In this document: positions 1,744-25,430 of the stretch, piece after piece
How positions within the stretch are numbered: the stretch's first letter is position 1
Layout: each line of letters opens with the position of its first letter
Origin: a virus
Taxonomy: Duplodnaviria > Caudoviricetes
DNA length: 26,116 nt
IMG/VR virus record: IMGVR_UViG_3300044840_000036
Coordinates: 1-26,116 of that record
Reading direction: 5' to 3' (one strand)
The notes under the pieces: model-generated
What the model was told of the DNA's origin: nothing
Database searches by the model: none
The model's input: only the letters and a program-made list of their open reading frames with translations
Made by a program: the position numbers and the translations under genes

Positions 1744-2088
1744 CTATGCATCCTCCAGATCGATATGGTGCGCTTCGTGAATCCTCGGCTCGCCGGTCTC
1801 ATCCACGCGATGCACACACAGAATGGCCGTCAGCGGCTCCAGCGCCAGGAACATATGCTTCGTTCGCGCCTTGATGACGATGCCGGCCGGCGCGCGATAT
1901 TCGCCGAGCAGCTCGCCGTCGGCCCAGGCCCGAACCGCCCCGGAGGCAACCACACTGAGGTGGGCGGTTTCGTGACTATGCTGTGGTATATACGTGCCGG
2001 CAGCGAAGATCGCATGCTTCACGAACAGTCCTTCGCATAGGTGAATATTGGTCTCGACCGGCTGCTCATCGAGTTGGCGGTACTTCAT
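1744..2088 (-). CDS. Cupin-domain protein
   Basis: AGTYIPQHSHETAHLSVVASGAV...KHMF cupin metal-binding pattern. Start set to ATG 2088 (ATGA overlap with the upstream stop); the track starts at 2097. Confidence 0.8.
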   Translation of the reverse strand: MKYRQLDEQPVETNIHLCEGLFVKHAIFAAGTYIPQHSHETAHLSVVASGAVRAWADGELLGEYRAPAGIVIKARTKHMFLALEPLTAILCVHRVDETGEPRIHEAHHIDLEDA

Positions 2089-2636
2089 GGTTCGCACCTC
2101 ATGCTGATAATGCAGACGATCCGGTCACGGTCGCCATTGTTCAGGACACTATGCGGGCGCAAGTTGTCGAAAGTGAAAATGTCACCTTGCACCATGGTAA
2201 CAACCTCCCCGTCGCAAGTGCTTTCCGAAGAACCGGCCAGCGTCACATGCACCTTCGTGTTGTAGAATTCAGGCGCCCAGCTGCCCTTGTCCGAATGCAG
2301 CCGCACCTCGCCACCCAGCGGAATTCGAGTGATCAGGATCGACCCGAGTTCGACGGCGGACACCCTGGTCATCAGACCGAACACCAGCGGCCGAAGCGAC
2401 GGCAGTTCGCGCCACGCCGGCCAGAACACGTTGCGGTGCTGCTCGGCGAACGAACGCAGGTCCTTGATTTCAGCAGCTGGACGGTAGCGCACCCAAACCG
2501 AGTTGGTGTCCGCGTGCGGGGTGCCGGGATAGCTCTGCCGATGGGTGTTTTCATCCCAGAGGCCGGGCGAGCGGTGCAGCTCCAGCATGATGGGGGTCAC
2601 ATCGAAACCTGATGCCAGCTTCAGGAAATTGCGCAT
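2085..2636 (-). CDS. Aspartyl/asparaginyl beta-hydroxylase-family 2OG-Fe(II) oxygenase
   Basis: ITRIPLGGEVRLHSD (HxD), KVHVTL, FTFDNLRPHSVLNNGDRDRIV (distal His and 2OG-binding Arg). Confidence 0.85.
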   Translation of the reverse strand: MRNFLKLASGFDVTPIMLELHRSPGLWDENTHRQSYPGTPHADTNSVWVRYRPAAEIKDLRSFAEQHRNVFWPAWRELPSLRPLVFGLMTRVSAVELGSILITRIPLGGEVRLHSDKGSWAPEFYNTKVHVTLAGSSESTCDGEVVTMVQGDIFTFDNLRPHSVLNNGDRDRIVCIISMRCEP

Positions 2637-15508: not shown

Positions 15509-17658
15509 GGCTGCGGACTTTGAACCGGCGGCTCGTTGGCTTGCTGTACCGCCAGCCCGTGCTGGGCCAAGGCCAGACCTTGCGCATGCGCCTGTTGCTG
15601 CGCCGCCAGAGCCAGCCTGGCGCGTTCGATGGCCTGGTCGTGGGCTTGTCCCTGCACCGCCAGCGGGTCGGGTTGCGCCGGCTCCGCCAATCCGTTGACC
15701 GGCGGCTCCTGTGACGCGGCGTGGTCCATCGCCATGCCGTGCAGCGTTCCCAGTGCCTGCGCCCGCGTACTGGCAGCGTCCGCCGCCTGTTGCGCCTGTT
15801 GCGCCGGCTGTCCGGCGTGATCGACGGCGATGTTGTGCAGCCGTTCCATCGCCTGCGCGTTGCGGTCCTTGGCATCGGCCTGGACTTTGGCGATTTGGGC
15901 ACCTTGCATCGCCTGCGCGCCCTGCTGGCTCTGCGCCTGCTGCTTTTGGTGCTCCTCCAGCATCTTCACCAGGTCGTCCTTGTTGCGCAGCGAGCTTGCC
16001 TTGATGAAGAACTCGGGCGGGAAGTTTTGTAACACCATCGGCGGCAGCGCCATGATCTGGCCGAATTGTTCGGCCTGCATCGTCGGGCTGTCCGGCCCCT
16101 CTTCGACGGTGATATCGACGTCGAGATCATCCAGCGCGTGTTCGATCCGCACCGTCTGGCCCAGTCTTGGATCACCCGGCTGCAAGCCCATCTGGCGGGC
16201 GATCTGCTGCGCCTGTTGCGGTGCCATCGCCTGCAGTTCTTCCAGCAGCGTGACCTTGCGGTTGAGGGTGACGAACTGGACGTCCTTGTTGTCGTCGGTG
16301 ACCCGGATGCTCTTCTCCTCGCCCCAGAACTGCCGGGCGCGCATCCACATCGCCTCGTAGATCTTGTGGCTCCACTGCCGGAGGCTGTCCGCCGCCGGCT
16401 CGTGCTCCACCTGGCCACCGGCCTGCTGCGCGAGGATTGCCCGGCCGGACTGTTCCCTGGGGTCCTTTCCGGCCATCGCGGCGTTCGGCCCGGTCACGTT
16501 CATCTGCTCGACGGCGTATTGGAGCATCTTGAAATGCCCCTCGACCTCGGCCTGGTCCTTGCGGATTTCGAACTCGAGGCCGTGGTTCCTGACGATCACA
16601 CCGTCGGGTTTGGCGGCCTCGTTACGGGCCTTGTCCTCATCATCGACCGCACCTTGCTCCATGATGATCTGGTTGACGTTGAGCAGATGCAGCAGCTTGC
16701 TTTCCCGCTTGTTGACCGAGTCCTGCGGGGAAATCATGTCCTTGACCACGCCGTATCTTTGCAGGTCCCGGTCGATGAAGATCGAGCGCATGATCAGCGA
16801 GCACATGGCGTGGCCGTGGCGGTCGAGATAGGGCGACTTCATCGCCGCTTCGAGAAAGCCGCCCTTGGTCAAGGTCGCGGTCCACCAGTCCTGTTTGCGC
16901 TTCCAATGGATCTGCACGGTGCGCACCCTTCGCCGGGCTTTGTCCGACCAGACGGTTTGCGGCTTGTCGTCGAAGGTATCGCTCCGGCTGGAGGCGAACG
17001 TGCTGTCGAGGATCTCCTCGCAGCCCGGGTACATGTCCACGGCATCGGCCCGGTCCATCCAGATCACACAGCCCAGATAGGACGCATCGGAAAACCCAGG
17101 GTGGGCAGAGTGCGGATCCCAGAACAGCCGGTTCCACGGGATGTGATTGACGACGACATTATAGCCGCCATCGACCTCGTTCGGTTCGACGATGACCTCC
17201 GCGCCGCCCGTCCCTTCGACCATCATGTTGTCGAACGCCGACGACCGGACCACGTCGAAGCGCTGGTCGTCGGAGATATAACGCAGCACCTGGGTGGCGA
17301 CGTCGGCCCTCGTTTCCTCGTTCGGGGTGCGCGGGAAGGCTTTCGGATCCGACCGGCCGCGCCGCTCCATGCCAAGGTAGAGCTGCACTTTGCGCTTGAC
17401 GTAGTTGTTGACCGAGGGCGGCTGGTGACGCCGGCGTAGGGTCCGCGCCTCTTCCGGGGTGTATTGCCTCCCGTCGAAGTAGTCCCGGCACTTCTCGGAC
17501 ATCTCGCGGGAGTCCGTCGAGGCCATCTCGGCTTCTTCGAAATACTGGATCAGTCTCTCCAGCAGCTCGTTTTCGTCCCCCGGCCAGTCCTGCTGGCCGT
17601 CGATGGTTGGCGGACCCTGTGGACTCTGAGGGCGCGGGGCGGACAGCGATACAGACAA
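15505..17658 (-). CDS. Portal protein (P22 gp1-like)
   Basis: 717 aa, TTG start after AGGGGGA. DYFDGRQYT...RRHQPPSVNNYVKRKV, YGVVKDMISPQDSVNKRESK, SGRAILAQQAGG, DVDITVEEGPDSPT, long Gln/Ala-rich C-terminus. Confidence 0.92.
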   Translation of the reverse strand: MSVSLSAPRPQSPQGPPTIDGQQDWPGDENELLERLIQYFEEAEMASTDSREMSEKCRDYFDGRQYTPEEARTLRRRHQPPSVNNYVKRKVQLYLGMERRGRSDPKAFPRTPNEETRADVATQVLRYISDDQRFDVVRSSAFDNMMVEGTGGAEVIVEPNEVDGGYNVVVNHIPWNRLFWDPHSAHPGFSDASYLGCVIWMDRADAVDMYPGCEEILDSTFASSRSDTFDDKPQTVWSDKARRRVRTVQIHWKRKQDWWTATLTKGGFLEAAMKSPYLDRHGHAMCSLIMRSIFIDRDLQRYGVVKDMISPQDSVNKRESKLLHLLNVNQIIMEQGAVDDEDKARNEAAKPDGVIVRNHGLEFEIRKDQAEVEGHFKMLQYAVEQMNVTGPNAAMAGKDPREQSGRAILAQQAGGQVEHEPAADSLRQWSHKIYEAMWMRARQFWGEEKSIRVTDDNKDVQFVTLNRKVTLLEELQAMAPQQAQQIARQMGLQPGDPRLGQTVRIEHALDDLDVDITVEEGPDSPTMQAEQFGQIMALPPMVLQNFPPEFFIKASSLRNKDDLVKMLEEHQKQQAQSQQGAQAMQGAQIAKVQADAKDRNAQAMERLHNIAVDHAGQPAQQAQQAADAASTRAQALGTLHGMAMDHAASQEPPVNGLAEPAQPDPLAVQGQAHDQAIERARLALAAQQQAHAQGLALAQHGLAVQQANEPPVQSPQP

Positions 17659-17693
17659 ACTATCCCCCTTTTTTTGAAACCAAGTCGTGATAA

Positions 17694-17734
17694 CCGCGTA
17701 TTGACTTGCGTGGAATACGCGGATTGCGTATATT
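17694..17734 (+). promoter_or_regulatory. Sigma70-like promoter overlapped by operator-like inverted repeats
   Basis: TTGCGT (17706-11), 17 bp, TATATT (17729-34). Inverted repeats CCGCGTATT/AATACGCGG (17694-702/17714-722) and ATACGC/GCGTAT (17715-20/17726-31). Confidence 0.6.
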
Positions 17735-17778
17735 TATCTCACCGAGGCGATGAGGCCCGGAAACGAGGATCAGCCCCG

Positions 17779-18000
17779 ATGACCGCCATGATTTCAGAGG
17801 TATATCAGGCTTTTAAGGAGGCTAATGTCAGTGATGACAGCGCCCGGAAGGCCGCCGAAGCTATCGCTGCATACGAGACCCGGTTTGCCGCCATCGACGT
17901 AAAGCTGGAGCGCCTGGATGGCCGGGTAACGCTTGTCCTCTGGCAACTCGCCATTCTCATCGCCGGGGTGGCAACCCTGGTCATCAAGGCGTTCGCGTGA
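17779..18000 (+). CDS. Small coiled-coil protein with C-terminal transmembrane helix (DUF1640/CCDC90-like architecture)
   Basis: ATG 17779 after GAGGA, 73 aa MTAMISEVYQAFKEANVSDDSARKAAEAI...LVLWQLAILIAGVATLVIKAFA. The track's 17464 start overlaps the portal. Confidence 0.75.
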   Translation: MTAMISEVYQAFKEANVSDDSARKAAEAIAAYETRFAAIDVKLERLDGRVTLVLWQLAILIAGVATLVIKAFA

Positions 18001-18212
18001 TGGACGAGGAATTACGCGCCTATCTCGAAGCGATGGAGGGCCGACTCTCGACCCGTTTGAACGATCAGCATGAGCGGGTGTTAAACCGACTGACGGCCAT
18101 CGAACGGGACTTTTCGAACACCAAGTCGTTCCTTATCGGCGACGCTCTCGTGTTGGGTGGCCGTTGGTCCGACCTCGAAGCTCGGGTCACTAAGCTGGAA
18201 GACGGCAAATGA
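17997..18212 (+). CDS. Small coiled-coil hypothetical protein
   Basis: MDEELRAYLEAMEGRL...LEARVTKLE; start and stop overlap both neighbours. Confidence 0.7.
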   Translation: MMDEELRAYLEAMEGRLSTRLNDQHERVLNRLTAIERDFSNTKSFLIGDALVLGGRWSDLEARVTKLEDGK

Positions 18213-18412
18213 GCCCGACCCGCTTCCGTGAGTGCCTCGACAGCCTCGAATGGTCCCAGAGGGGCGTTGCCCGAGTCCTTGACCGGCACGAAGGCACCGT
18301 CCGGCAATGGGCACGCGGCGCCGTGCAGATCCCCGCGGACGTTGCCGCATGGCTCGAAACGCTGGCGCAGCACCATGAGCGTCATCCCCCGCCGGAGCGG
18401 AAGGCGGCTTAG
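18209..18412 (+). CDS. Cro/XRE-type helix-turn-helix regulator
   Basis: FRECLDSLEWSQRGVARVLDRHEGTVRQWARG...IP HTH pattern; stop overlaps the terL stop. Confidence 0.8.
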   Translation: MSPTRFRECLDSLEWSQRGVARVLDRHEGTVRQWARGAVQIPADVAAWLETLAQHHERHPPPERKAA

Positions 18413-20958
18413 GCAACCTTCCAGCCACTGTCGTCATCATCACGGTTGCGGTTGAACGCCCGATCCCAGGAGTCGGTTGGCGGGGCGGGCGGCTTCGGCC
18501 CGGGCGGCGGCAGCATCTTATCCAGCAGCATGCCGATCAGCCCCAAAGCATCGACCTGGTCGTCGTGCTTGCCCGCAGGAAAGCTCAGCAACTCCGGTTC
18601 GAAATCCGCCCGCCATGGCGCGTCCGCCGGAATGTAGAGGCCGTTGAGCGCCATCCGCCCTCGGATACTCTGGGCCCGGATGCTCTTATCGCCGCCGCGC
18701 GTGGGAAACGTCTGCCGCGCCACGTAGGTCCGGCGTTCGCGCGATCGCTTGTCCAGCAGCGGCCCCATTGCCGCCCTGATCTGCCCCGCCTCTTCGGCCC
18801 AGCCCATTGGCTTGTACTGCTGAACCAGATCCAGGAACCGCTCGACCCAGACATCCGAAGCGGTCTGGCCGCGCCAAAGATCGAGAACGTAAAGCCGGTC
18901 GTCGCTGTCGACGCCGACCACGATGTGCACGGTGAAGTCCCCGCCGTCGTCAGTCACCGCGTAGTCTGAAGCGCCGAACACTCGCAGGCTTGAGCGCGGC
19001 GGAATGGTTGGCACCGAGCGCAGCCAATCCCGCAGGAAATACGATCCCGAGTCCGGGACGGGCCGTTGCTGATACTGCGCGGTCCACTCCCGCGAGGCGG
19101 CACGCTCCGAGAGCGACTGCTTGATCTGCGCCAGGCCTTGACCGAAACCATAGGTATCGTCCGACCAGAGCCATTCGCCCGGCGCCCGGCCAAGCGGGTC
19201 ATTATCCTCCGCCTCAGCCGGGAGCTTGAGCACCCGCCAGCGATGCGGCTCGGTTGCCAGCAGTCTGCCGGCCAGGTCGTCCTCGTGCCAGCGAGTCATC
19301 ATCAGAACGACGGACGATTTCGGCGTCAGGCGGCGTTCCAGGTCGCCGTTGTACCAGTCCCATACCTGCTTGCGATCAGGCCCGGAGTCCGCGGCGGCCC
19401 TGCCCTTCACCGGGTCATCAATGATCGCGCAGTTGTGGACTAGGATGCCTTCAGCAAAGAAGCACTCGGTTCGTTCAACTTGGATGTCGAATACCTCGGC
19501 TGGCTGGCATATTCGCTCAACCACGGCCACAGTATCCGCTTCGGTTTCGACCGCTCTCCGCCGTGCAGTTGTTCGTGACAGTCTGCGCAGAGCGTTACTA
19601 GGTTCGACCAGCGATTGTCCGCTGAGTTCATGTCGATATGGTGGACCTGCAACCTCACCGCTGCCGAGCACACCACACATTTGAAGCCATCCCGTTCCAG
19701 GATGTCCGGCTTCGTCTTGCGAAAGGCCCGCGCCGAATGCGGCTGTTGGCGGAGTGGGTTCGCTCCATTGCGCCAGCCCGGATTGGCCTTTCCGACCATC
19801 TGAAAGGCGTGCCCACGATCCTTGCACACCCGCCTGCAATATAACCCCGGTGCGTCCCGCGTCTTCGGTACAAACACGAGGTTGCAAAATCCGCATGGAC
19901 GCGGAAGAGGCGCAGGAAGGCGCCGGCGTTCCATACCCTTCCTTTTCACGTGGGCAATCCGACAAGGTGTCGAACAAAACCGACTGAACAGGCCCGACGC
20001 CCGTCTCGAGGGAATAGCCTTGCCGCACTCGATGCATTTCCTCTGTTCGGGCAACCCCCGCAAAACGTTGTTCGCCCGAGTGGAGCAAGCCTTGCTGCAA
20101 TGCGGGCCCGTCGCATACCGGCCCAGAAGCTTTCGCATTTCCGCCGCCGTTTGCCGTTTCGTGGCGCCGCACCGAGCACAGGAAAACGTCACCCACAGAA
20201 AGGGTCGCCGCTTGCTTCCAACCCCCATCAGTCCAGAAGCGATGGTTTCCCGTTGCTTCAACCACTCGCCCAGCGGCAGTTCGAATTCGCCAGAGGGCGT
20301 CAGTACTGCGCCGAGCGACAGCAAGAACGCGACAGAAGACGGGTCTTTTGTTCCTTTCGTCATAGGAAAGAACATAGCCGGTTTCCGTGCCGACTTTCAC
20401 GTCTTTAATGCGTCTTAACCCACTGATGGTGTTAACTTTTGTATCACCAGAAAGGCAATCCGCCCTGAAGCCTGGGATACCGGCCCGGACGCCCGCCGCG
20501 AGATAGGCGCCGCCGTTGGTGGTGTACCAGCGTCCCTGCGCCCTTGTGGCCAGGTTGTAACCGAGCGTCGCCGGGTTCTCAGTGATAAAGCCCTGGATCT
20601 TGCCGCTGAAATCATCGGCGAGTTCGGACGTATGGCTGGCGCCGATCAGCTTCATGTTGGGCCGGCGCGCCAGCAGCCAGGCGGAGAACAGCACCGTCGC
20701 GTAACGGGACTTCGCCGACCCCGGCGGCATGAAGATCATCAGCCGATCGACCAGGCCGTCCGCCACCGCCTGCAGCTCCGCGATCAGCAACCGGTGGTGC
20801 GCCGCAGGAGTCTGCCCGAACGGGGCCAGAGCTTCGATACACCAGGCGAGGAACGAACGTCTGCATTCGCGCCGACGCTGGATCTCCGCGAGCAGCCTCG
20901 CTTCGGCGACGTCGGGATGATCCCCCGGCCTTATGATGCGGGTGCCGCCGTCCGGCAT
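18409..20958 (-). CDS. terL: Terminase large subunit precursor containing an intein
   Basis: Walker A MPPGSAKS; Walker B restored on splicing as GFRAD|CAIIDDPVK; MTRWHEDDLAG, YQQRP, nuclease motifs SDYA and HDDQVDA. 849 aa precursor, 507 aa after removing 342 aa. Confidence 0.95.
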   Translation of the reverse strand: MPDGGTRIIRPGDHPDVAEARLLAEIQRRRECRRSFLAWCIEALAPFGQTPAAHHRLLIAELQAVADGLVDRLMIFMPPGSAKSRYATVLFSAWLLARRPNMKLIGASHTSELADDFSGKIQGFITENPATLGYNLATRAQGRWYTTNGGAYLAAGVRAGIPGFRADCLSGDTKVNTISGLRRIKDVKVGTETGYVLSYDERNKRPVFCRVLAVARRSTDALWRIRTAAGRVVEATGNHRFWTDGGWKQAATLSVGDVFLCSVRRHETANGGGNAKASGPVCDGPALQQGLLHSGEQRFAGVARTEEMHRVRQGYSLETGVGPVQSVLFDTLSDCPREKEGYGTPAPSCASSASMRILQPRVCTEDAGRTGVILQAGVQGSWARLSDGRKGQSGLAQWSEPTPPTAAFGAGLSQDEAGHPGTGWLQMCGVLGSGEVAGPPYRHELSGQSLVEPSNALRRLSRTTARRRAVETEADTVAVVERICQPAEVFDIQVERTECFFAEGILVHNCAIIDDPVKGRAAADSGPDRKQVWDWYNGDLERRLTPKSSVVLMMTRWHEDDLAGRLLATEPHRWRVLKLPAEAEDNDPLGRAPGEWLWSDDTYGFGQGLAQIKQSLSERAASREWTAQYQQRPVPDSGSYFLRDWLRSVPTIPPRSSLRVFGASDYAVTDDGGDFTVHIVVGVDSDDRLYVLDLWRGQTASDVWVERFLDLVQQYKPMGWAEEAGQIRAAMGPLLDKRSRERRTYVARQTFPTRGGDKSIRAQSIRGRMALNGLYIPADAPWRADFEPELLSFPAGKHDDQVDALGLIGMLLDKMLPPPGPKPPAPPTDSWDRAFNRNRDDDDSGWKVA
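19432..20457 (-). mobile_element. Intein in TerL (aa 168-509, 342 aa)
   Basis: Block A CLSGDTKV, block B EATGNHRFWT (TxxH), block F VFDIQVERTECFFAEG, block G ILVHN followed by Cys+1. Inserted just before Walker B. Confidence 0.93.
19440..20375 (-). CDS. HNH endonuclease with three C4 zinc-finger-like repeats, overprinted in the +1 frame inside the intein
   Basis: ILERDGFKCVVC...LQVHHID...DNRWSNLVTLCADCHEQLH (HNH); CARC..CSKAC, CIEC..FCSTPC, CGFC..YCRRVC; GKANPGWRNG. The true start may be ATG 20228. Confidence 0.85.
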   Translation of the reverse strand: MFFPMTKGTKDPSSVAFLLSLGAVLTPSGEFELPLGEWLKQRETIASGLMGVGSKRRPFLWVTFSCARCGATKRQTAAEMRKLLGRYATGPHCSKACSTRANNVLRGLPEQRKCIECGKAIPSRRASGLFSRFCSTPCRIAHVKRKGMERRRLPAPLPRPCGFCNLVFVPKTRDAPGLYCRRVCKDRGHAFQMVGKANPGWRNGANPLRQQPHSARAFRKTKPDILERDGFKCVVCSAAVRLQVHHIDMNSADNRWSNLVTLCADCHEQLHGGERSKPKRILWPWLSEYASQPRYSTSKLNEPSASLLKAS

Positions 20959-21176: not shown

Positions 21177-21443
21177 ATGAGCGAATGGCACCCGATCGAA
21201 ACCGCGCCGAAGGACGGCACCAGGATCGACCTGTGGTTCAAATGGTGGCGTGCCGATACCGACGAATTCCTCGGGCGGCGGGTGACCGACTGCTACTGGA
21301 CCAATGTCAGCGGGCATGAGCGCTGGGCGTGCGAATGGGGTTCGATCCCCAGCAACAGCCGGCCGACGCACTGGATGGCACGGCCGGACGGCCCCGGGTC
21401 AGCCGGTCAGGAGAGCGGTGACGCTATGGGCGCCGGCGAATGA
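21177..21443 (+). CDS. DUF551-like phage protein
   Basis: MSEWHPIETAPKDGT...PTHWM signature. Confidence 0.8.
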   Translation: MSEWHPIETAPKDGTRIDLWFKWWRADTDEFLGRRVTDCYWTNVSGHERWACEWGSIPSNSRPTHWMARPDGPGSAGQESGDAMGAGE

Positions 21444-21919: not shown

Positions 21920-22120
21920 ATGGGCGAAGACGAGGTTCCGGGCTGGAATTCGTTTGTGCGATCCGACGGCATGGCGGTTTCGCGTGGTGTCGAGGGCACC
22001 TGGCTGGTGTTGCCACACGATCACCGGCCGCCGGTTACGCTGTGCCCGTGCTGTAAGCGGCCAATGAAGTCGGCGTTTGCCGCCGAGAAGGTTGCTGATG
22101 AGGTGTATCCGCCTCAGTGA
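21920..22120 (+). CDS. Small hypothetical protein with a CPCC motif
   Basis: 66 aa filling the gap between two minus-strand genes; G-rich stretch before the ATG. Confidence 0.4.
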   Translation: MGEDEVPGWNSFVRSDGMAVSRGVEGTWLVLPHDHRPPVTLCPCCKRPMKSAFAAEKVADEVYPPQ

Positions 22121-22647: not shown

Positions 22648-23327
22648 CAGGGCGCGAACTCATGTTGGCAGGCCGGACAGACCACCGACTTCGTGGTGTG
22701 CCGTTCCGGCGGGGGTGGTGGCGGCTCAGGCTCATCGAACAGCACGCTGATTTCGTCGGCATCGAAGCCGGTCATGTCCAGGTCGAAGCCGTCAGACCGC
22801 AAATCGTCTAGCTCGATCCGCAGCAGATCATCGTCCCACGAAGCCCATTCCGCCGACTTGTTCGCCAGCAGCCGGAACGCCCGGATTTGCGAGTCGGTCA
22901 GATCGTCCGCCAGCGCCACCGGGACAGTCGGGAGCTTCAACCGGCGCGCTGCCTTGAACCGCAGATGGCCGTCAACGATCGTGCCGTCCGACTTCGCGAC
23001 GATGGGGATACGGAAGCCGAATTCTTTGATCGCGTCCGCCATCCGGCCAACCTGGGCATCGTTCTTGCGCGGGTTGCGGTCGTACTCGACAAGCCGCGCG
23101 ATCGGCCACGTCTCGACCGTCAGCGCGAGACTCGCCAGCGCGGGTCGTTTCGGCTTGCCTCGCGTGCGTGCGCGCGCCCGTGAGGCGTCAAGGTTGCCGC
23201 CGGCGGGGGGCGCGGCCGGCGGGGGCGCCGCTACAGGTGTAGTTATAGGTGTGGTGGCAGATGTAGGGTCCTTCGGTTTATTGAAGGACACGCCTTTGAC
23301 TCGGCCACCGGTCTTTTTTCCACGCAT
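22647..23327 (-). CDS. ParB N-terminal (ParB/Srx) domain protein with C-terminal CPxC motif
   Basis: YDRNPRKN...IKEFGFRIPI...IVDGHLRFKAARRL...AFRLLANK...WDDDLLRIEL...TGF; ends VVCPACQHEF. Confidence 0.88.
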   Translation of the reverse strand: MRGKKTGGRVKGVSFNKPKDPTSATTPITTPVAAPPPAAPPAGGNLDASRARARTRGKPKRPALASLALTVETWPIARLVEYDRNPRKNDAQVGRMADAIKEFGFRIPIVAKSDGTIVDGHLRFKAARRLKLPTVPVALADDLTDSQIRAFRLLANKSAEWASWDDDLLRIELDDLRSDGFDLDMTGFDADEISVLFDEPEPPPPPPERHTTKSVVCPACQHEFAP

Positions 23328-24196
23328 TACGCTACCAGATACCTTGCACTACTGTCGCCAGGGCGGGCGTGGGAGTAACGAGTTGTCGTGGTCAGAGAGG
23401 CGTGACCGAGCGTGCTTTGAACGACGTGCACCGGGGCTGACCGATCGAGCGCGTGGCTAGCGTGGGCATGTCGCAGCCAGTGCGCCGATACGCCGGGTGG
23501 TAGTTTGGCGCGTTTCGCCGCCGCTTTGACGATCCGATGCACGCCGGAGCGATCCAGCGGGGTCTTTTGGCGTGACCGGAACACCGGATCATCCGGGCCA
23601 GCGTCCCCCCGCAGGGACATGTTCCTGAGCCAGATCGGCGTCGGCAACAGAATCGGACGCGTCTTGCCGCCCTTGCCCAGCACGGTGATCTGGCCGCCCT
23701 CGGCGCGGGCGATGCAGTCGCGCCAGCGTAGGCCACACAGTTCGGAAACCCGGATGCCCGAGATATACAAGGTGCGCAGGATCGCCGCGTTACGCGGATG
23801 CCGCTCCATCTCCAGCATGCGCTGCACTTGCCACTCAGTCAGGATACGTTCAGCCAGGCGGTCCTGGATCGCCGGGAGTTGGACGGGTGCGGCGACATCA
23901 AAGGCCAGATAACCCAACCGGTGCGCGAAACCGACCAGCGACTTAACCGATGACAGCCGCCTGGCGACGCTGGCCGGCGCCATCTGTTCGATACTCGCGG
24001 CGAACGCCTGCACATCCCCGAGCGTGACCTCACGCAACGGCTTGCCCACGAAGCGAAGGAACAGTCGAACATCCCGCCCGTAGGCATAGCGGGTATTGGC
24101 CGAGCGGTAGTTGCCAACCCATAGATCGATCAGACCGGTATCGCTGGTCGCTTGGACGATCCGGAGGGGCGCCGGGGGTGATAGCGACTGCATCAT
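23327..24196 (-). CDS. Tyrosine recombinase (XerC/XerD-like)
   Basis: N-terminal SANTRYAYGRD domain; catalytic R (SGIRVSEL), K (GKGGKTR), HxLRH (SAHWLRHAHASH), LGH and Y (TTTRY) all present. Confidence 0.93.
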   Translation of the reverse strand: MMQSLSPPAPLRIVQATSDTGLIDLWVGNYRSANTRYAYGRDVRLFLRFVGKPLREVTLGDVQAFAASIEQMAPASVARRLSSVKSLVGFAHRLGYLAFDVAAPVQLPAIQDRLAERILTEWQVQRMLEMERHPRNAAILRTLYISGIRVSELCGLRWRDCIARAEGGQITVLGKGGKTRPILLPTPIWLRNMSLRGDAGPDDPVFRSRQKTPLDRSGVHRIVKAAAKRAKLPPGVSAHWLRHAHASHALDRSAPVHVVQSTLGHASLTTTTRYSHARPGDSSARYLVA

Positions 24197-24229: not shown

Positions 24230-24673
24230 TTAGACGGGACGGAACGCCTCTAAGTAAGCCGCCATCAAGCGCAGGCGATGCGGCGAATCCTTCGCACAAC
24301 CAATTGCTACGTTGCATCCGTGACAAAGAAGACCTCGAACCTGCCCAGTCGCGTGGTCATGATCGACGTGCATCTGGCCTCGGCCTGCCCCCAAGGGATC
24401 GTCACAAGCCCTGCATCGTCCAACTTGCTCACACAGGAACGCGTCGAACTGTGCCGCCGTCAGCCCATAATTCTGTCGCCGGGCCTGATGGGCCGCCAGC
24501 CTGCGATCGGTAGCGCTCTCTGCATAGCGTTCGCGCCGCCCGCTACAAAAGCAGACCCTGCACTGATAGCGCAGACCCGACACGGTCGACACGTCATGAT
24601 GAAACTCCGTGAACGGCTTCGCTTGCCGGCACTTGGTGCACCGCCTGTGCCCCGCTAGCGTCGTGTCAGCCAT
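24230..24673 (-). CDS. Endonuclease VII-family (His-Me finger) free-standing endonuclease
   Basis: YGLT...QVGRCRAC...HVDHDHATGQVRGLLCHGCNVAIG...D...AAYL, plus N-terminal CTKC...CRVC zinc ribbon. Confidence 0.9.
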   Translation of the reverse strand: MADTTLAGHRRCTKCRQAKPFTEFHHDVSTVSGLRYQCRVCFCSGRRERYAESATDRRLAAHQARRQNYGLTAAQFDAFLCEQVGRCRACDDPLGAGRGQMHVDHDHATGQVRGLLCHGCNVAIGCAKDSPHRLRLMAAYLEAFRPV

Positions 24674-24812: not shown

Positions 24813-25430
24813 TTAGACCAGCTCGACCGCCGTTTGATCGACCGTGATCGGGCACTCGCGGCCGAACAACTGGATGGGAACGCGGACCTGTTGGCCGTCG
24901 CTCCAGTCGCAGACGGCCTCGAACCCCGTAAACGGCCCCTCAAGCAGCCGCATCAGAGCCCCAACCAGGGAGTTCGGCACATCACCGTCCTCATGGTAGC
25001 AGCCGCCGGCGTCGCACATGCCCCTGATCAGATCCATGGCGCGATCCGGCATTGGCGTCGGCGCATCGGCCAGGCCGAGAATGGCCTCCACGCTCGGCAA
25101 ATGCTGTCGCGACCGCCAGTAGTCGATCAGCCGGAACCGCGAGAAGATGTAGGTTTTGAACAGCGGCGCAGTGCGGGCAGGACGGGCGGGGATGATCGCG
25201 CCCACGGCGTTGCGGCGCGCCCGTGTGGCCGGTTTTGAGATGGTCGGGGCGAACACGTCAAAGCCCTGGGACCCGATCTCTTCCGCCGCCGCCTGTTCGC
25301 TGTCGTAGCGGGTGCGGGCGCAATACCAGCGGGCGAGATCGGGCCGCACAGCAGGCGGCGCTTTCGGCTGCGGGCCGAATCCAGGACGCGGACCGCCCCA
25401 GCGCGACGTTGCGTACTTGAGCATGATCAT
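24813..25430 (-). CDS. NusG/RfaH-family transcription antiterminator (phage paralog)
   Basis: NGN domain WYCART...E...GFDVFAP...PLFKTYIF...PSVEAILG...PTPMP; KOW domain RLLEGPFTGFEA...QLFGR. Confidence 0.88.
   Translation of the reverse strand: MIMLKYATSRWGGPRPGFGPQPKAPPAVRPDLARWYCARTRYDSEQAAAEEIGSQGFDVFAPTISKPATRARRNAVGAIIPARPARTAPLFKTYIFSRFRLIDYWRSRQHLPSVEAILGLADAPTPMPDRAMDLIRGMCDAGGCYHEDGDVPNSLVGALMRLLEGPFTGFEAVCDWSDGQQVRVPIQLFGRECPITVDQTAVELV

Follow-up and report, generated by a model that had tools for sequence, protein, structure and literature searches.

The terminase large subunit gene (terL) on a 26,116-nucleotide (nt) phage contig (IMG/VR record IMGVR_UViG_3300044840_000036, positions 1 to 26,116; this whole stretch is the window) is interrupted by an intein within which a zinc-finger HNH gene runs on the same strand in the +1 frame. 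With a probability of roughly 0.7, we read this gene as encoding a separate homing endonuclease of 307 amino acids (aa), likely expressed from a promoter inside the intein. An earlier reading of the letters alone (the original prediction) had proposed such a separate +1 nuclease. Frame-specific conservation, the ratio of non-synonymous to synonymous substitutions (dN/dS), stop depletion and start-signal enrichment together support a separate, selected and presumably translated gene.

The terL intein and the gene in its +1 frame

The window also encodes portal, major head, head-closure and DNA-ejection genes, an integrase and a ParB-like gene. The few named relatives of its TerL come from Roseomonas, Muricoccus and Falsiroseomonas at ~60% identity, which makes an alphaproteobacterial host likely. 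Excision of the 342-aa intein is predicted to leave a TerL of 507 aa, and the closest intein-free relatives measure 493-513 aa. The insertion site, GFRAD/CAIIDDP, lies directly 5' of an hhhhDD motif that we take to be Walker B-like. The canonical splicing blocks of the original prediction (C1, TxxH and HN/C+1) are all present, here as C1, TGNH, HN and C+1 together with VFDIQV, and with them every class 1 residue (C1, T69/H72, D324, H341-N342 and C+1); Pfam Intein_splicing matches the TerL frame at E 2.6e-11. Extein halves are joined with zero gap in 117 of 119 relatives, the other two carrying an intein at a different site, and we infer that the 342-aa insert splices out of TerL. An RNA intron was considered and rejected, there being no Rfam match in the window and the protein-splicing motifs being intact.

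The intein middle was said to show no LAGLIDADG or HNH motif in the TerL frame, and Pfam indeed finds no endonuclease family in that frame at E<=1. In an AlphaFold2 model built with 75 sequences, residues 1-100 and 301-343 reach pLDDT (per-residue confidence) values of 91-99, and residues 101-300 stay at 41-58 with no secondary structure except one 4-residue helix. The best Foldseek matches of this model are mini-inteins. A Hint fold is thus predicted at the two ends of the intein, and an unstructured in-frame middle between them. The ESM Atlas gave no usable match for the middle, a result not counted as evidence.

The +1 frame is open over 318 codons, up to a TAG 8 nt before the intein end, as originally read, so that 957 nt (put at about 950) are open in both frames. 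Because 468 of 20,000 synonymous recodings of the TerL-frame protein (2.3%) leave +1 equally long open, openness alone is weak evidence and was rejected as a stand-alone argument; it is the HNH content and the family conservation that rule out chance. The three CxxC..CxxxC units, GKANPGWRNG and the intact HNH core described in the original prediction are all found in +1 (Table 1). Profile searches of the two frames placed Intein_splicing in the TerL frame and HNH in +1 (PF01844, 27.6 bits against a cut-off of 21.4). The +1 protein also matches the HNH family PHROG 1271 at E 1.1e-22, and its alignment profile matches solved HNH domains, including the phage HNH 5h0m (E 4e-6). C229, C232, H241, H242, N254, C259, H263 and H267 are invariant in 84/84 family sequences. 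Profile and intact residues together argue that the protein is an HNH (beta-beta-alpha-metal) endonuclease.

Table 1 Features of the terL locus, in window coordinates
Feature	Position	Strand	Description
terL	18409..20958	-	single open reading frame (ORF), 849-aa precursor; N-extein 167 aa, intein 342 aa, C-extein 340 aa
Class 1 intein, C168-N509, 342 aa	19432..20457	-	motifs, Pfam, predicted Hint fold
Intein block B, T69-G-N-H72	20242..20253	-	covered also by the +1 gene
Intein block F, V322-F-D-I-Q-V	19477..19494	-	covered also by the tail of the +1 gene
Intein end, H341-N342 and C+1	19429..19437	-	splicing motif
+1 frame, stop to stop, 318 codons	19440..20396	-	TAG 8 nt before intein end
Probable HNH gene, ATG 20363 to TAG, 307 aa	19440..20363	-	putative start; alternative ATG 20375
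Zinc finger 1 (C62, C65, C89, C93), +1 frame	20085..20180	-	CxxC..CxxxC unit
Zinc finger 2 (C110, C113, C130, C134), +1 frame	19962..20036	-	CxxC..CxxxC unit
Zinc finger 3 (C157, C160, C176, C180), +1 frame	19824..19895	-	CxxC..CxxxC unit
GKANPGWRNG, +1 frame	19764..19793	-	motif between fingers and nuclease core
HNH core, +1 frame (C229xxC232, H241-H242, N254, C259xxC262, H263, H267)	19563..19679	-	motif, Pfam
Candidate -35 hexamer GTGAAA	20395..20400	-	weak in the window
Candidate -10 hexamer TATGTT	20371..20376	-	18 nt from -35, 7 nt before ATG 20363; position of stronger sites in relatives

Conservation and selection across the intein family

As locus searches with single proteins gave few close relatives, the family was retrieved with a DNA pattern encoding only the TerL-frame intein end and the next extein residues. 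Matches numbered 212 (97 viral, 8 genome and 107 metagenome), and 142 gave a complete intein, 110 of them unique. Together with the window these make 111 inteins: 82 of at least 299 aa, one of 260 aa, four of 160-199 aa and 24 mini-inteins. Every full-length intein (82/82, window included) has the HNH core in +1 and none has it in frame 0 or +2; 80 of the 82 are open in +1 from codon 53 through the core, L202 being counted under code 25. No in-frame endonuclease family was detected in the 75 full-length inteins searched (Pfam, E<=0.01). Among the 70 unparsed matches, 12 were too short, and 48 of the 58 examined show the HNH core in +1 and none in frame 0 by motif. Part of the core lies in frame 0 by hidden Markov model (HMM) in L245, where the terL frame is broken; L245 is one of five partial loci with broken frames (also L084, L137/L158, L207 and L220). 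Because the pattern was drawn from the family's C-terminus, inteins at the same site with other ends go uncounted; among full-length inteins with this C-terminal signature, the +1 HNH is the sole nuclease layout seen.

Named carriers comprise 41 Brucella phage records, Gordonia phage Clown and Synechococcus phage S-EIVl, along with Streptomyces and Micropruina contigs. The Clown intein carries the family's +1 HNH, and neither the Clown nor the S-EIVl record annotates a +1 nuclease gene. We also observed that TGA seems to stand for glycine in the L202 genome (table 25), a code under which both its frames are open through the HNH core, and that the 260-aa intein, L182, sits at the same site with a different middle and has no HNH match in the frames examined. 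A second intein site exists in this terL family, directly before T-R/P-W-H-E (L015, L036, P0083, P0161 and P0026), and some of its terL genes contain both inteins.

Selection was then compared between the frames. Over 76 representatives, amino-acid identity at codons 326-342 is 0.72 in the TerL frame versus 0.36 in +1, and at codons 251-290 it is 0.47 in +1 versus 0.22 in the TerL frame; in the intein middle, the most variable nucleotide shifts to TerL codon position 1, which is the +1 wobble position. Across 11 non-overlapping pairs of 67-99% identity, codons 96-300 have a dN/dS of 0.18 when read in +1 and of 1.6 when read as TerL; the C-extein control (10 pairs) shows the reverse, with 1.84 in +1 and 0.12 in the TerL frame. 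This comparison of homologues by frame, together with the 80 of 82 open +1 frames, bears out the check set by the original prediction. The intein start, codons 1-30, behaves as TerL-frame-only sequence (0.22 in the TerL frame, 1.21 in +1), whilst both frames are constrained at codons 45-92 (0.80/0.56) and 310-330 (0.65/0.54), the regions of blocks B and F. These two splicing blocks are coded in both frames at once, under dual constraint. The proposal that the TerL frame need only stay stop-free holds, then, over codons ~96-300 and fails at blocks B and F.

Stop codons tell the same frames apart. In the middle, 10.8 TerL-frame stops per sequence are expected (8.9 in the window) and none was seen, the parsing having partly required open frames. 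In +1, the 76 representatives contain 209 stops over codons 1-50 (180 expected) and none over codons 51-92 (84 expected), from which it follows that the +1 protein starts before codon 51 and reads across block B. The absence of +1 stops and the constraint on both frames from codon 51 onward also led us to reject the conserved GTG that directly precedes finger 1 (around window 20192) as the start. The position of the last +1 stop varies between codons 6 and 49, and start codons with Shine-Dalgarno (SD) motifs follow it.

Likely expression and mobility of the nuclease, and competing explanations

Start signals were scored family-wide, promoters with an approximate version of the E. coli sigma70 matrix. 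Within intein nt 40-160, the best site averages 8.61 versus 6.34+-0.25 in synonymous recodings, and 0 of 150 null sets attain 8.61. The excess is absent from the antisense strand and from codons 51-110, and neither 70 C-exteins nor 15 mini-inteins closed in +1 show it, while the nine mini-inteins with +1 still open retain it; it is positive in 40/50, 21/27 and 13/16 sequence clusters. The -10 boxes cluster at intein nt 79-82 and 109-110, and several sites come close to the consensus, as does TTGACA-17-TAAAAT in L206. Over codons 27-56, +1 ATGs are in excess (93 versus 68.9+-7.0 expected), as is the SD score (4.37 versus 2.55+-0.29), with no enrichment of either in +2 or in the C-extein. Since sigma70-like promoters, +1 start codons and SD motifs are thus all enriched across the family in intein codons 15-55, the nuclease is likely to be separately transcribed.

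In the 57 sequences with a promoter score of at least 6, the ATG lies 6-9 nt past the -10 box with little SD in 16, at 11-14 nt in four, and at 20 nt or more with a stronger SD in 30. Near starts have an SD score of 1.19 versus 4.47 for distant ones, a low value that is partly built in because the SD window overlaps the AT-rich -10 box. In the window, the probable start is ATG 20363, whose intein position holds an ATG in 14/76 representatives; as this codon lies so close behind the candidate -10 box, a leaderless message is likely. A terminator-like hairpin occurs at 20395-20376, and the count of such hairpins is within chance (1 vs 2.0+-1.3).

Several results weigh against this reading. Besides the approximate matrix, the promoter of the window itself falls short of significance (6.8 vs 6.1, p 0.42), individually significant sites occur in only 18/76 representatives, a consensus promoter scanner found no site in the window, and 7 of the 57 scored promoters are followed by no ATG or GTG. 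The full-length inteins of L114 and L118 have one +1 stop each (2/82); brucellaphage Tb (L060:2323-3318) has a TGA at the first finger-1 cysteine in +1, and L114 is alike, so that copies with a +1 stop may be dead or may use a later start. Finally, only 6 of 117 intein-free relatives have a Cys at +1, so that most invasions would require the flank to be co-converted, unless only a minority of alleles is open to invasion.

The strongest competitor keeps the homing element and dispenses with an internal promoter: ribosomes would initiate within the full-length terL mRNA to make the nuclease. The SD and ATG enrichment fits this equally well, the window promoter is weak, and a GGA lies upstream of ATG 20375. 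The promoter excess is nevertheless strand- and position-specific and is lost in closed mini-inteins, and the 16 near starts have little SD (in part by construction); we consider internal initiation unlikely, though it deserves the most weight among the alternatives.

Mobility is suggested by the distribution of the element. None of the 13 top-scoring TerL relatives (72-86% across the C-extein) has an intein, and among the 120 relatives listed only P0019 carries the family intein. In trees of 60 loci (FastTree splits with support >=0.9), the HNH has 21 supported splits, of which the extein tree contradicts 12 and the splicing-domain tree 4; L118 and L131 agree at 69% over the HNH and at 44% over the extein. 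Patchy distribution and a nuclease history discordant with that of the host gene are consistent with homing. We also noticed that, in the empty alleles nearest the window (P0070-P0087, L275, L276 and L300), the +1 residue is unusually varied (C, H, A, Y, T, G or V) between conserved flanks, which could reflect tolerance or escape from invasion. As for loss, L072 (153 aa) and L065 (333 aa) have near-identical intein ends, suggesting that mini-inteins arise by deletion of the intein middle. Fused remnants of the +1 gene persist in the mini- and intermediate inteins L066, L071, L072, L090, L175, L196 and L222; the nuclease is therefore lost through internal deletions that preserve both frames.

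An HNH protein encoded inside terL and under purifying selection, with a profile resembling phage HNH 5h0m, might instead be a domesticated terminase cofactor, presumably of the HK97 gp74 type. In 80 related terL loci (flanks <=4 kb), the only full family member lies in L294, within the same intein, and none stands free beside the terminase, which argues against a packaging role. The HNH is moreover lost in 24 mini-inteins, the closest TerL relatives have the gene without the HNH, and three tandem fingers suggest recognition of a long DNA site. We regard this role, also raised for the brucellaphage HNH (PMC4422536), as improbable.

Slightly less probable still is a programmed +1 ribosomal frameshift in intein codons 30-50, which would fuse the nuclease to the TerL N-terminus. 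In its favour, the offset never departs from +1, this frame is already open upstream of the first finger, and the window has CTT-TCC in this region; yet no common slippery sequence is visible by eye in the 76-row alignment, and the last +1 stop shifts along the intein before SD-bearing start codons appear. Lastly, decay of a once free-standing gene, or sequencing errors that displaced an in-frame nuclease, could explain the internal stops in 2/82, the five broken partial loci and the partly frame-0 core of L245, but this reading is largely refuted by the low +1 dN/dS and invariant catalytic residues, by a TerL frame open where many stops are expected, and by the identical offset in 82/82. This shared offset also excludes the compensating indels that the original prediction had listed as a possible artefact; contigs of the likely source run, a soil metagenome, align to the window without gaps and are not independent of its sequence, and small shares from further soil runs were kept out of the evidence.

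Returning to a separately expressed homing nuclease, the terL mRNA would yield the 849-aa precursor, whose Hint halves would fold around a ~200-aa unstructured loop and splice to give mature TerL. A sigma70-type promoter in intein codons ~19-37, positioned from the family statistics, would start a second transcript, leaderless in the window lineage and with an SD-led start at codons 38-52 in others. At a terL junction that lacks the intein, the three zinc fingers would then bind and the HNH core would make a nick or a cut, after which the empty allele would acquire the element through repair templated by the intein allele. The TerL-frame loop would be a by-product of the nuclease gene, merely kept stop-free, and deletion of the intein middle would give mini-inteins. 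Translation, splicing, the internal promoter, the leaderless start and homing are all read from sequence here.

Known out-of-frame nucleases and significance

The original prediction took the arrangement to be possibly rare and not unprecedented. A precedent does exist, in the brucellaphages; the rarity did not hold, as the arrangement is less rare than thought. The terL intein of Tb, Pr and relatives (GenBank JN939331, ORF07/ORF08; Tevdoradze et al. 2015, PMC4422536) has an out-of-frame HNH at the same site (GNRAD/CVIIDDP), with the same +1 offset, on the same strand and with homology in both frames. Across the 41 Brucella phage records, the +1 protein shares 39% identity over 88%, and the whole intein 31%. 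In the text of that paper it is an annotation remark, given without a test of frames, selection, start or spread; the annotated ORF08 begins after the TGA, whereas the window copy is intact with three fingers. We note that the nuclease of the Tb/L114 lineage may be truncated or dead and that all 41 matched records carry the intein.

Other out-of-frame nucleases differ in family and frame. Actinobacteriophage inteins whose frame 3 encodes an endonuclease VII-like nuclease (Gosselin, Arsenault and Gogarten, bioRxiv 10.1101/2025.01.02.630785) share the open intein frame, the disordered middle and a nuclease in another frame of the same strand; the window nuclease, by contrast, is Pfam HNH rather than Endonuclease_7, lies in +1 and overlaps blocks B and F, whereas the second ORFs of that preprint typically lie outside the splicing domain. 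The word 'promoter' is absent from the preprint's text, where the Clown intein is named only as the longest. A cyanobacterial dnaX intein with an out-of-frame LAGLIDADG (Phillips, DeSimone and Gogarten, bioRxiv 10.64898/2026.09.14.751524) follows the same logic, with a frame-dependent dN/dS pattern, mini-intein and empty alleles and a putative SD, but its nuclease occupies the '+2 ORF' of a cellular gene, and HNH, terminase and promoter do not figure in the text. The ShiLan domain, a hidden HNH in phage methylases (Arsenault et al. 2025, PMC11855218), is likewise a zinc-finger HNH in an alternative frame of an open host frame, with leaderless initiation proposed; as described there, it differs in having no splicing domain, a non-essential host gene, frame 3 and 195 aa, whereas the window has a complete Hint domain. 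Within a literature search whose scope left out most subscription journals and bioRxiv supplements, no paper surveying the family or reporting an intein-internal promoter was found.

Elsewhere in the window, a free-standing recombination endonuclease VII gene (24230-24673, minus strand; PF02945, E 7e-21) is flanked by a NusG-like gene (24813-25430) and the integrase (23327-24196). Small plus-strand ORFs lie opposite the packaging genes (17464-18412, 21177-21443 and 21920-22120); the ORF at 18209-18412 (plus strand), between terL and portal, matches a transcriptional regulator PHROG. A cupin or Asp-Asn beta-hydroxylase-like gene (2085-2636, minus strand) sits among the virion genes.

Taken together, the sequence tests all fit a functional element, and we consider the element real, an intact member of an arrangement already in print for brucellaphages (PMC4422536) and, with other out-of-frame intein nucleases, in 2025-2026 preprints. 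With confidence only a little above even, we further propose that it typifies an old and large family of inteins spread across phyla, in which the homing nuclease is an entire gene nested inside another, with its own sigma70 promoter and leaderless or SD-led start in splicing-domain codons, and is expressed independently of the late terminase transcript; the splicing blocks would be dual-coded, and the arrangement stable rather than a stage toward in-frame fusion (0/82 full-length inteins converted). Published work regards out-of-frame intein nucleases as rare and as possible stages on the way to in-frame fusion. Here, ~950 nt of dual coding, catalytic splicing motifs included, are kept across phages of Alphaproteobacteria, Actinobacteria and Cyanobacteria. 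The family yields testable predictions at nucleotide level, namely promoter boxes and a start codon, for instance in the cultured Gordonia phage Clown. Inteins scored as 'decayed' from their in-frame translation may have an active nuclease, in genes that standard annotation misses.

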